A DNA stretch of 11,068 bases, from the IMG/VR virus record IMGVR_UViG_2700989545_000014. One strand, given 5' to 3'. Each line of letters starts with the position of its first letter. Position 1 is the first letter of the stretch. Position numbers and translations under genes: made by a program. Positions 1-9,840 of this stretch are shown here, piece by piece. This stretch comes from a virus (taxonomy: Duplodnaviria > Heunggongvirae > Uroviricota > Caudoviricetes). The notes under the pieces were generated by a model. The model ran no database searches, was not told the origin of the DNA, and saw only the letters and a list, made by a program, of their open reading frames with translations.

Positions 1-37
1 GATAAGAATAAAATCAAAGCAATAAGCAGTGTCGTGA

Positions 38-60
38 AACCACCTTCGGGTGGTTTTTTT
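38..60 (+). terminator. Rho-independent terminator (7-bp stem, UUCG tetraloop, T7 run)
   Basis: aaccacc-ttcg-ggtggtt at 38-55 followed by ttttttt to 60, read directly from the sequence. Which transcript it ends is unknown because the upstream gene is outside the window. Confidence 0.5.
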
Positions 61-145
61 GTATTTGTATTTTGTGCAATGGCGGTTGAGTGGCGATGGT
101 GTGGCGATATGCAGAAACAATGGTAGTGCACGTGCTGTTTAAACT

Positions 146-250
146 CTAAGGATGAAGCAGAATTCTTCTGCAGCTCCTCCGTATTTCGCATAGTGAACCA
201 GGACTTCTGTTAAACAAAAATTTTTCTGGGATTTTTCCACTCGACTTCAT
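146..250 (-). pseudogene. Degenerate hok/mok-like remnant (upstream leader frame fused to the Hok C-terminal motif, toxin N-terminus deleted)
   Basis: Minus-strand AGGAGG then ATG at 250 gives MKSSGKIPEKFLFNRSPGSLCEIRRSCRRILLHP*. The FLFNR-P segment matches the short frame upstream of the intact hok at 1178..1273 and GSLCEIR matches the Hok core. Relative to 1050..1420 about 130 bp covering the toxin transmembrane codons are absent and the frame shifts after SLCEIR. Confidence 0.35.
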
Positions 251-531
251 TTTTCCTCCTGCAATCCACCAACAGGTACCTGCGCTAATCTATCTTTTTA
301 ATCTGACAACATCTTGGGAAAAGGCAAATTCGTCAGATTTACTGTTTTTCTGCTGCCTCGAATGCCGATGTCTGAAGCACTGATAAGAGTTCTATCTCTT
401 TGATATAGATCTTTTTTTTGATGAATTGCACGACATATTATCGTTATGACACCTTCTTGTTAAAGGTATTGTACTCCTCATCTCGATTTTATGATGTGGG
501 CTATGATTGGTTAGTAATAGAGTGTATCGGT

Positions 532-813
532 ATGCGATGTGGTTTATTAATGGCAATCTGCCTTTGTTTAGTATCTTTTAGCGGATATGCAGCAACAGGA
601 AAGTCTGATGCTCAGATCAAAAAAGAAATAATTAAAGAATCCATTGAATCTTATCCAGGCAATTGTGCGTGTCCTTATAATCATGCAAGGAATGGTAGTA
701 GATGTGGTGGACGCAGTGCATATAGCCGTAATGGAGGGTATGACGTGGTATGTTATGAGGGTGATGTTACCGATGAAATGATCCGGCAATGGAAGCAGGA
801 GAATGCTGAGTAA
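532..813 (+). CDS. Small secreted Cys-rich protein of unknown function (93 aa with predicted signal peptide)
   Basis: The ORF track frame is 418..813. The signal-peptide-like segment MRCGLLMAICLCLVSFSGYA-ATGKSD (basic n-region, hydrophobic core, A-x-A site) begins at the ATG at 532, so 532 is the preferred start. The mature part has 5 Cys (GNCACPYNH...CGG...VVCYEG). The region is markedly AT-rich compared with the phage genes. The Shine-Dalgarno is weak (GAGTG). Confidence 0.5.
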   Translation: MRCGLLMAICLCLVSFSGYAATGKSDAQIKKEIIKESIESYPGNCACPYNHARNGSRCGGRSAYSRNGGYDVVCYEGDVTDEMIRQWKQENAE

Positions 814-879
814 TCTCTTTTAACAGGTTTGTTGTGCGAGCATTATGTGCCGTTAACGGTACACTAGCTAGTGATAGTT

Positions 880-922
880 CCAAAAAGAAAACCCGCAGTT
901 CTTACGCTGCGGGTTTGTTGTT
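880..922. terminator. Bidirectional rho-independent terminator
   Basis: Stem cccgcag (892-898) / ctgcggg (907-913) with an 8-nt loop. It is flanked by tttgttgtt on the plus strand and ttttcttttt on the minus strand, so it can end both the 532..813 gene and the minus-strand hok transcript. Confidence 0.6.
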
Positions 923-1001
923 CATGTCTGTGAGATAGGGTGCCACTTCAGCCAACCTTAGCAACCGATTGACGGGGGATTGCTCCCCCGTCGCGGTTTC
1001 C

Positions 1002-1142
1002 TTACTGCTTACACTGTAAGAACGCCGCAAACTCCGCTCCCCAGAAGCTCATCCGTATTTCACACAGCGAACCGTGTAGCATCCAGATGATGAGGATTAC
1101 CGTCACGCAGAACGTGATGGCCGTAAGCGATTTTTGCGACAT
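1002..1142 (-). CDS. hok: Hok/Gef-family type I toxin (46 aa membrane peptide)
   Basis: Hand translation of the minus strand gives MSQKSLTAITFCVTVILIIWMLHGSLCEIRMSFWGAEFAAFLQCKQ*. It has an N-terminal hydrophobic helix plus the conserved Hok core SLCEIR and the AAF(L) C-terminal motif seen in Hok, Gef, RelF, PndA and SrnB. AAGGAG lies 8 nt upstream of the ATG. It is absent from the ORF track because it is under 60 aa. Confidence 0.7.
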   Translation of the reverse strand: MSQKSLTAITFCVTVILIIWMLHGSLCEIRMSFWGAEFAAFLQCKQ

Positions 1143-1177
1143 AGCGCTTGCTCCTTTGTTGGAGAGGCGCTAACCTA

Positions 1178-1273
1178 TCACTTGCTTAAGGTAGATATGT
1201 TAGGGCCTCGGTTAAACAGAAATGTTTTCCGGGGCCTTTCCACATCTGGCCTTCGGGTATTCCCTCCGACCAT
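1178..1273 (-). CDS. Short upstream (mok-like) reading frame in the hok leader
   Basis: The 31-codon frame MVGGNTRRPDVERPRKTFLFNRGPNISTLSK* shares the FLFNR-P peptide with the remnant copy at 146..250. Unlike classical mok it stops about 35 nt before the hok start and has no clear Shine-Dalgarno, so its function is uncertain. Confidence 0.25.
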   Translation of the reverse strand: MVGGNTRRPDVERPRKTFLFNRGPNISTLSK

Positions 1274-1333
1274 CAGCCGAAAGGCACCCGCGCGTAATCT
1301 ATCGCTTTTTTGTTACTCCGGCAATTCTGCCTG

Positions 1334-1594
1334 TTAATTCTGAGGTAAAGGCAAACTCATCTGATTGTTTCCCCTGTGTGAAGCTGGCAGCTCATGCCAC
1401 GGGATACCTTCTGAAGAGTGAACGCCGGAGGTGTGTTTTGATGTGAATTTATGGAAAGCTTCCAGTGTTGAGAAGCATACGCCGCATTCCAGGTTGTTAC
1501 ACTGGTAATACTTTTGCCGCACGGTGTTTGAATCATTTTCAGGACGACTGGTGCGGATACGGGCAGATGCGCCACAAAGCGGACAACGGAACAT
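1334..1594 (-). CDS. ogr: Ogr/Delta-family zinc-finger late-gene transcriptional activator (86 aa ORF, C-terminus atypical)
   Basis: The N-terminus MFRCPLCGASARIRTSR...YYQCNNLEC has the CxxC...CxxxxC zinc-finger layout and matches P2 Ogr (MFHCPLC...). AAGGGAGG lies 5 nt upstream of the ATG at 1594. The ORF is longer than P2 Ogr (72 aa) and its last ~28 codons lie in DNA homologous to the hok-like repeat. Confidence 0.8.
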   Translation of the reverse strand: MFRCPLCGASARIRTSRPENDSNTVRQKYYQCNNLECGVCFSTLEAFHKFTSKHTSGVHSSEGIPWHELPASHRGNNQMSLPLPQN

Positions 1595-8594: not shown

Positions 8595-8645
8595 CTCTTA
8601 ACCTTATAACATGTGTGGTCTGAAATAATAATTAAGGAGATTATC

Positions 8646-9218
8646 GTGCTGTCTTACCTAATGGCAATTCACTTTGTTTTATTTGGGAACTCTACTAATT
8701 TAAAAAACTTCTGGAAACATGAAGTAATTCGGCGGAAACGTATGGATATCTGGAGGCTTTTAAGAGAGAAAAAGCAGCGTAACAGGAATTTCCTTTTCTG
8801 GTGGCGGTTGGCTAACGAAATGTATATTAATGGTAATAAATTACATAAGAAAGCAGCCAAGAAGTTAAACAGTAAAATAATTAACAAATTTGGTTGCGAA
8901 ATTGGATTGGGCGCAAATATTGGAAAAGGGTTAACAATTCCCCATCATGCTGGAATTGTTGTTCATTTTGCTGTTGATGCTGGTGAAAATCTGGTGTTAC
9001 GACAGAATACGACCATTGGACAGATAGATGGTGACATACCTGGTTCAAGAGTAAAAATTGGTAGCAACGTTGATATCGGAGCTAATTGTTGCATCATTGG
9101 ATTATCCCGTAAAATTGGGGATAATGTAAAAATAGGTGCAATGTCTTTTATAAATAAAGATATACCATCGAACTGCACATATATAACTAAAAAGAGCGGT
9201 GCTGTATTGTATAAATAG
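8646..9218 (+). CDS. Hexapeptide-repeat (left-handed beta-helix) O-acetyltransferase of the CysE/WcaB/NodL type, prophage cargo (moron) gene
   Basis: The C-terminal two-thirds shows imperfect hexapeptide repeats (GCEIGLGANIGKGLTIPHHAGIVV...VKIGSNVDIGANCCIIG...IGDNVKIGAMSFI) resembling serine and polysaccharide O-acetyltransferases. The start is placed at GTG 8646, 6 nt after AAGGAG; the track frame opens at 8613. The gene is far more AT-rich than the flanking phage genes. Confidence 0.7.
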   Translation: MLSYLMAIHFVLFGNSTNLKNFWKHEVIRRKRMDIWRLLREKKQRNRNFLFWWRLANEMYINGNKLHKKAAKKLNSKIINKFGCEIGLGANIGKGLTIPHHAGIVVHFAVDAGENLVLRQNTTIGQIDGDIPGSRVKIGSNVDIGANCCIIGLSRKIGDNVKIGAMSFINKDIPSNCTYITKKSGAVLYK

Positions 9219-9226
9219 AGTACATA

Positions 9227-9263
9227 AAGCCATCGATATTTCTATCGATGGCTTTTTCTTTTT
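9227..9263. terminator. Strong rho-independent terminator after the cargo gene
   Basis: A 12-bp stem aagccatcgata / tatcgatggctt with loop tttc is followed by tttttcttttt on the plus strand. The tfa stop codon lies at the edge of this element. Confidence 0.7.
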
Positions 9264-9840
9264 ATTGTGGGGCGACTGGCCACTCAATATCTGCTGCTAC
9301 TGTTGTATCAACACGATGCAACAATACTCGATATGTCTTCCATGCAGCCAGTAACGATGTCTCTTCCTCCGTCGCAATATCTAAATCTATAGCATCCTGA
9401 AGTGGTGCAATATGCTCACTGGCTACCTGCATCAGGCTGTTTTTTGTTTCTTCCGCCTCCCTTATCCGAAATAGTTTTTCTGCTTCTGCATCTTTCACCC
9501 AGGATGTGCCGTTCCACTTCTGATACTCTCCATACGGCGACAACCAGGTAACATTTTCCGGTAACGGACCGAGTTCAGAAATAAATAACGAGTCCCCTGA
9601 TGCCACGTCATAAACCGTTTTACCCCGATGGTCTTCAACGAGATGCCACGATGCCTCATCACTGTTGAAAACGGCCACGAAGCCAGCCGGAATATCTGGC
9701 GGGGCAATATCGGTACTGTTTGCAGGCAGACCTGTATGAGGTGAAATGTATGCATCACCTTCACCAATAAACTCATTGGTTCCGGTCAGTAGATTATAAA
9801 TTTTTATGGTCCGTGATTGTTCACTCATTCTGAATGTCAT
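9262..9840 (-). CDS. tfa: Tail fibre assembly protein (lambda Tfa / P2 gpG family)
   Basis: The 192-aa product ([18 protein letters not shown]...[20 protein letters not shown]...) closely resembles, from memory, the TfaR/TfaQ-type chaperones of E. coli lambdoid prophages. Its ATG overlaps the stop of the upstream fibre segment (TAATG). Confidence 0.9.

Follow-up and report, generated by a model that had tools for sequence, protein, structure and literature searches.

Immediately inside the leuZ end of a P2-like prophage of Escherichia coli, a short minus-strand stretch at positions 133–345 is very probably what remains, in inert form, of a second unit of the hok/sok type, a reading to which we assign a probability of about 0.85. 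The DNA analysed is an 11,068-nucleotide stretch (IMG/VR record IMGVR_UViG_2700989545_000014), referred to here as the window. The original unit would have run from the last ~10 codons of ogr through a hok promoter and leader into the hok open reading frame (ORF). With toxin, antitoxin and hok mRNA architecture all missing, the relic would be inactive and simply carried along with the prophage end. It sits in a variable cargo slot that extends from the attP arm to the conserved hok–ogr module in an Sp13-type P2-like prophage at leuZ. As the initial annotation had proposed, two hok-like loci, the relic (133–345) and an intact copy (1002–1370), flank the gene of a small secreted protein as direct repeats. 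Its block of 61–400 for the degenerate copy was drawn too wide: 133–345 is hok-derived, and 61–132 and 346–400 are not hok-like. The features on which the argument draws are as follows.

1–62, plus strand: host-side att repeat, the sequence downstream of leuZ, including a terminator hairpin at 36–57
63–132, no strand assigned: attP arm with two direct GTGGCGAT repeats, at 90–97 and 101–108
133–199, minus strand: relic hok codons 24–46, with a 4-nt deletion that shifts the frame after SLCEIRRS
199/200, minus strand: junction of a 128-bp deletion, placed by BLAST coordinates and identical in all five relic variants
200–280, minus strand: relic hok mRNA leader (mok/sokT region), 72% identical to 1202–1289 (z = 19), hairpin stems degraded
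281–345, minus strand: relic hok promoter and last ~10 ogr codons, placed by alignment; -10 TAGATT at 287–292 and -35 TTGTCA at 304–309
346–884, plus strand: small-gene cassette, comprising an upstream region and the gene (532–813) of a 93-aa secreted, Cys-rich protein
889–916, no strand assigned: bidirectional terminator between the small gene and hok
930–1289, minus strand: intact hok mRNA with 5'–3' fold-back pairing; hok ORF at 1002–1142
1334–1594, minus strand: ogr/delta late-gene activator (Pfam Ogr_Delta, E = 5e-14; RefSeq annotation)
1637–2878: gpD

Comparison of window 1–420 with 880–1460 by BLASTN returned three colinear segments on the same strand, and each score was set against 500 dinucleotide-preserving shuffles. 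Two segments, 200–299 with 1202–1310 (72% identity, E = 3e-8, z = 19.3) and 172–199 with 1046–1073 (86% identity, E = 2e-5, z = 10.4), had scores reached by 0/500 shuffles; the third, 312–339 with 1339–1366 (79% identity, E = 0.008, z = 4.6), was reached by 2/500. The similarity that had been noticed by eye, that of a degenerate hok copy in the same orientation, is therefore significant on formal alignment, with z values of 10–19 for the two main segments. In a MAFFT alignment of five relic variants with five hok units the homology reaches as far as the hok stop codon position, and 133–345 is colinear with intact 1002–1370 at 71% identity over 214 columns. Moreover, tblastn recovered GSLCEIR(R/M)S from the relic (E = 0.001). 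Colinear similarity and the conserved Hok codons GSLCEIR mark the relic as homologous to hok by descent.

The limits of the relic follow from the same comparisons. No similarity to 880–1010 was found in 61–145 (z = -1.0), a stretch made up of the att repeat and attP arm; 63–132 contains no counterpart of the hok 3' UTR, the part that pairs with the 5' end of the mRNA. On the other side, hok-like similarity was looked for in 346–400 and none was seen beyond 339–345, and these positions belong to the small-gene cassette. The extension of the relic into the end of ogr is carried solely by a marginal 23-nt DNA block (316–339 against 1343–1366, a score reached by 2/500 shuffles), and at the protein level the comparison of the relic's upstream end with the Ogr C-terminus was not significant (E = 18).

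Three lesions separate the relic from a working unit. A gap of ~130 bp across the toxin start and transmembrane codons had been read from the sequence by eye, and the missing piece is exactly 128 bp (intact 1074–1201). It comprises hok codons 1–23, MSQKSLTAITFCVTVILIIWMLH, which include the membrane segment, and 59 nt upstream of them, with the AAGGAG Shine–Dalgarno site inside. Judged by position, the sok promoter would have been lost in the same deletion, along with the Sok 5' end. The frame break previously located after SLCEIR is a 4-nt deletion after SLCEIRRS. In the promoter the -10 hexamer TAGATT is kept, and the spacer has shrunk to 11 nt (12 nt in other variants) compared with 17 nt in the intact copy. 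The leader has decayed as well, in that the complementarity of the hairpin at 1204–1236 (Sok terminator/mok start hairpin) is gone from the relic sequence.

The intact locus provides the reference for what has been lost. Its ORF matches Pfam HOK_GEF (PF01848; E = 3.7e-7), and its mRNA, read from 1289 to 930, folds with z = -8.2 and pairs end to end. The leader (1132–1289, minus strand) matches Rfam RF01794 with 47.9 bits (E = 3e-9), short of the gathering score of 59; since the locus scores below this threshold despite its strong fold, P2-phage hok loci of this subfamily are missed by Rfam scans run at the gathering threshold. The hok copies of two further loci (L011 and L044) gave 46 bits against the same model. 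For the sok promoter of the intact copy we take TTGCTC-17-TAACCT (1148–1176), placed by positional analogy with plasmid R1 and a poor fit to the sigma-70 consensus. A consensus promoter scan flagged neither this site nor the hok promoter of the intact copy, so both are assignments that we infer. Positions 930–1333 are 93–99% identical to P88, Chuche and Xuanwuvirus relatives, and 82–84% identical to Stx-phage loci annotated 'MokW-like host killing'.

None of these attributes was detected in the relic. A search of window 1–400 with RF01794 at E <= 10 gave no match on the relic, and none at the gathering threshold either; the hok units of another prophage contig (L047, described below) score 48–96 bits. 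Neither of the two relic peptides matched a Pfam family at E <= 10, and the relic encodes no Hok ORF of ~50 aa with an N-terminal transmembrane helix. Its sense RNA folds no better than chance (z = +0.1; 105 of 200 shuffles fold as well), and it does not form the highly structured mRNA with tac/fbi fold-back that characterizes hok. Nor is there a Sok gene with its own promoter, the stretch corresponding to the inferred sok promoter lying inside the deletion, and the hok promoter spacing is not one with which sigma-70 could work; a promoter scan over the relic reported no promoter-like site. No ORF is conserved among the five relic variants, because the frames change with the length of an A-run. 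In one variant (L003), the sense orientation contains no ORF of at least 20 aa. The window-type relic does have a strong AGGAGG-N5-ATG start before a 34-codon ORF (146–250), but this ORF is not conserved.

The position of the relic in a prophage end, a context absent from the initial annotation, comes from the attachment site. The window comes from the E. coli chromosome and matches strain OkiPb01713 at 100% identity; its base 1 lies 7 nt past the tRNA-Leu gene leuZ of the glyW-cysT-leuZ operon. In 5418 of 5426 complete E. coli genomes the core-genome match to the window ends at base 62–64, and in strains with an empty site leuZ is directly followed by yecA. In E. coli 55989, an 89-bp perfect direct repeat, consisting of the leuZ 3' end and terminator, bounds both prophage ends (L049, 4028–4116 and 39672–39760) and ends at window base 62. 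The yecA–leuZ interval of that strain holds a complete P2-like prophage (int, C/cox-like, replication, Q-P-O-N-M-L, tail, D and ogr). Because the att repeat ends at 62, the window from base 63 onwards is prophage DNA, read from the ogr end, and the whole region is the attP-proximal cargo of a P2-like prophage at leuZ. The relic is thus enclosed by the duplicated att boundaries, with the att repeat on one side of it and the phage core genes on the other. In the record of O157:H7 Sakai this element is labelled 'prophage Sp13, P2-like phage', with its start 66 nt past leuZ, and the relic region carries no annotation. On the integrase side, AGTGGCGAT/AGTGACAAT motifs resemble the GTGGCGAT repeats of the arm, which are possibly integrase arm-type sites and are treated here as putative. 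Phage P88 was considered as a user of the same att site on the grounds that its record ends in CACCTTCGGGTGG, and was set aside: only a 13-nt hairpin is common to the two, and the real att is the 89-bp repeat.

Between the relic and the intact hok lies the small-gene cassette. Its 93-aa product, ECs_2649 in Sakai, has a signal peptide and a Cys-rich motif (CACPYNH..NGS.CG.RSAYSRNGG), and no Pfam family was found for it. Homologues with 50–64% identity occur in Aeromonas, Kosakonia and Pseudomonas; a scan of species-representative genomes found only distant homologues of this kind, and none of them adjoins hok. The gene looks like a moron in the attP-proximal slot. A search of a phage collection with window 62–880 gave no match, even in distant mode. 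Among plasmids, full-length matches to 62–880 were confined to two E. coli records, both large (0.44 and 1.41 Mb); the small gene also had weak DNA matches on plasmids of Xanthomonas and Spartinivicinus. One locus (L046), which had appeared to carry a variant upstream region, proved to have an IS3-family insertion in the small gene.

Related phages show how the slot varies. Sequenced phages of the P88/Xuanwuvirus group and Chuche have in common with the window only 882/930–1340, that is, hok plus ogr, at 93–99% identity. Their cargo from hok to attP/int is different, consisting in P88 of a DUF-type small gene and in Chuche of a com/methyltransferase pair, from which it follows that the relic and the small gene fill a variable cargo slot beside attP. 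In the IMG/VR contig IMGVR_UViG_2757320577_000005 (L047, 1–1540), the same slot holds a homologue of the small gene and, after it, three hok/sok units in tandem, which score 48, 64 and 96 bits against the Rfam sok model, the third belonging to a different Hok subfamily. In the first of these units the leader is joined to the end of the small gene and the toxin ORF is missing, so that it could be an orphan Sok-type unit. These tandem units indicate that duplication and partial loss of hok units recur in the slot. A second arrangement, found near copA in 3 of 5426 E. coli genomes (L011 type), has the cassette abutting a different arm-like repeat (TGTCCACA, twice) without a relic; its similarity to the window begins at ~343, which coincides with the end of the hok/ogr homology in the relic.

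Sequence diversity among 24 distinct loci distinguishes the two hok copies. Nucleotide diversity (pi) is 0.098 in the relic hok codons against 0.008 in the intact hok ORF, a 12-fold difference, and 0.077 against 0.054 in the respective leaders; the small gene, at 0.025, and the region upstream of it, at 0.036, are conserved. Compared pairwise between lineages, the relic is 80–87% identical and the intact ORF 98–99%. The noncoding spacers at 814–884 and 885–1001 reach 0.10–0.15, as variable as the relic, so that its diversity denotes a lack of constraint and nothing more special. Relic-versus-intact differences are biased towards AT (38 GC>AT against 15 AT>GC, p = 0.002), and the GC content of the relic is 39%, compared with 51% for the intact locus. 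With the second hok unit of L047 as outgroup, 39 changes are assigned to the relic branch, compared with 9 to the intact branch (~4:1). Constraint on the relic is thus relaxed relative to its functional paralogue. On sequence grounds, diversity, AT bias, branch ratio and GC content are the signatures of a pseudogene.

Decay is old and widespread. About 11% of complete E. coli genomes carry the relic: it is present in 646 of 5426, 615 of these matches having at least 80% coverage, and it is without annotation in all the matches listed. Variants only 83–86% identical to the window share the same 128-bp deletion, the 4-nt deletion and the shortened spacer. Since identical lesions occur in variants this divergent, they are older than the split of the present prophage lineages, and this order of events would hold under either of the origins considered below. 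A distant blastn search of the E. coli genomes found no intact allele of the relic, and the full-length matches listed were single colinear pieces of 274–283 bp. The leuZ-type arm was likewise accompanied by relic and small gene on all 27 IMG/VR contigs that have it. Comparison with related strains, which had been suggested as a check on copy number, showed the relic with its constant lesions in ~11% of complete E. coli genomes and the cassette without a relic in L011.

Insertion sequences have remodelled this prophage end in some strains. In strain EC7 (L010), an IS1 with a tet(B) region is inserted in the relic at ~248, replacing the rest of the prophage end; the relic can therefore be disrupted. 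In O157:H7 strains WS4202 (L002) and Sakai (Sp13, L084), an IS30 lies at window position ~864, and the intact hok is absent together with ogr and part of gpD. Owing to this IS30-associated loss of the intact hok and ogr, the relic is the sole hok-related sequence at this prophage end in O157:H7.

How the second copy arose is less clear-cut than its decay. An ancient duplication followed by decay had been suggested; the decay is borne out by the 12-fold difference in pi, the GC>AT bias and the absence of a conserved ORF, and duplication is one of two origins that fit. We give roughly an even chance to duplication in situ, in which the resident hok/ogr-end unit would have been copied and the small gene would have come to lie between the copies by insertion. 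This origin is favoured by the duplications seen in L047 and by the relic being closest to the hok type of its neighbour (71% identity, against 59% and 49% to other units). Almost as tenable, though we would hold it only tentatively, is illegitimate recombination between two P2-like phages with diverged functional hok alleles, one contributing an attP(leuZ)–hok–ogr end and the other small gene–hok–ogr, after which the att-proximal hok decayed. The coincidence of the boundaries at ~343, where the L011 cassette abuts a different arm repeat without a relic, speaks for such an exchange, as do the differences in slot cargo between P88, Chuche and the present prophage. Furthermore, all three differences in the GSLCEIR codons that are common to every relic variant are synonymous, which suggests divergence while both copies were under selection, although three sites are a very small sample. 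However, the L011 type is limited to 3 of 5426 genomes and is a degraded island without ogr, and could thus be derived; the closeness of the relic to the neighbouring hok type also tells against recombination. Nor did searches of the E. coli genomes and of IMG/VR, the latter with the small protein and the arm repeat as queries, find an intact allele of the relic lineage or a leuZ-arm prophage without the relic.

A further proposal of the initial annotation, that recombination between hok loci captured the intervening AT-rich gene, found no support: the copies, at ~71% identity, have diverged too far, and the cassette also occurs with no pair of hok copies around it, as in L011, where it adjoins another att arm with no relic. 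The homologues of the gene in Aeromonas, Kosakonia and Pseudomonas, which do not stand beside hok, also fail to bear it out.

Whether the relic, of either origin, has been put to new use is a separate question. It might have been co-opted to act as a Sok decoy, to give rise to a small RNA or peptide, to form part of the attP P' arm or to regulate or insulate the small gene, all of which we regard as very unlikely. Its architecture is unchanged in the ~11% of complete E. coli genomes that carry it, across lineages 83–86% identical, it begins 25 nt from the arm repeats, and where the leader lies opposite the 3' half of Sok ~79% identity is kept. Against this stand the high diversity, the lack of a conserved ORF or of any excess folding energy, the disrupted hairpin stems and the deletion of the stretch that would face the inferred 5' recognition end of Sok; in addition, L011 presents the same cassette context without the relic, and the relic of EC7 is interrupted by IS1. 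Persistence across diverged lineages could mean that the relic is tolerated beside the att arm or that it is of some use; that it is kept specifically for P'-arm function, as a Sok decoy or sponge, or for regulation of the small gene seems slighter still. Chance or low-complexity similarity with no hok-derived sequence at all, to which the identity of only ~71% and the marginal third block might lend some colour, is refuted by three blocks colinear in strand and order, two of them with scores beyond every shuffle (z = 19 and 10), by the recovered GSLCEIR codons and by an alignment consistent over five relic variants and five hok units, and we consider its probability negligible.

As an inert hok remnant, the relic adds a further, unannotated example to a class of objects already known. 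Inactivation of the hok loci of K-12 is mostly due to IS elements, point mutations or rearrangements. According to the summary in a later paper, degenerate and apparently non-functional hok loci beside intact ones have been described on enterobacterial chromosomes (Pedersen & Gerdes 1999, cited in Fozo et al. 2010, PMC2887945), and the relic resembles these E. coli loci in having degenerated, apparently without function, while intact copies persist. It differs from them in its clean 128-bp deletion, 4-nt frameshift and shortened spacer, and in lying within the cargo slot of a prophage, with an intact paralogue 800 bp away. A census of hok set aside 5.1% of unique Hok coding sequences as too short and 2.6% for internal stops, and found hok to be enriched in prophages (bioRxiv 10.1101/2025.08.07.668861). 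P2-like phages, for their part, carry cargo hotspots, including ones next to att (PMC13586616).

The relic belongs to the same subfamily as the hokW/sokW-type locus of Stx phage Sp5 (Takada et al. 2021, as described in a citing paper) and the P88-like hok–ogr module, but unlike them it is without the toxin N-terminus, the Shine–Dalgarno site, the region of the sok promoter and the fold-back element of the 3' UTR, and its promoter spacing is not a functional one. Set against hok/sok of plasmid R1, the archetypal type I toxin–antitoxin (TA) system, its promoter, its structured leader with a mok-like frame (..K.FCLTE.L) and LCEIR are still recognizable, and an antisense Sok of the ancestral architecture would be expected from position, yet no working part survives. 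Type I TA units are prone to duplication inside a single intergenic or cargo region, as for ibs/sib and ldr/rdl (Fozo et al. 2010, PMC2887945), and the hok units of L047 and the pair described here are likewise duplicated in one region. Here, however, an unrelated gene lies between the relic and the intact copy, and one of the two is dead and not a functional paralogue. The relic itself matters little: it makes a useful annotation note and raises no new question about mechanism. It serves as a small example of the turnover of TA units, by duplication or shuffling and then decay, in the attP-proximal cargo slot of P2-like prophages.

Two observations concern other parts of the window. A full-length match to Rfam IS009 (9299–9497, minus strand; 177 bits) lies within a tail-fibre-assembly ORF (9262–9840, minus strand), and the IS009 family was probably derived from prophage coding sequence and does not represent an independent small RNA gene. 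In the tail-region cargo slot, 8613–9218 (plus strand) encodes a serine acetyltransferase, and a gene with the same annotation and length lies between the small gene and hok in L011 (3111–3683); this pair suggests that cargo may move between slots.
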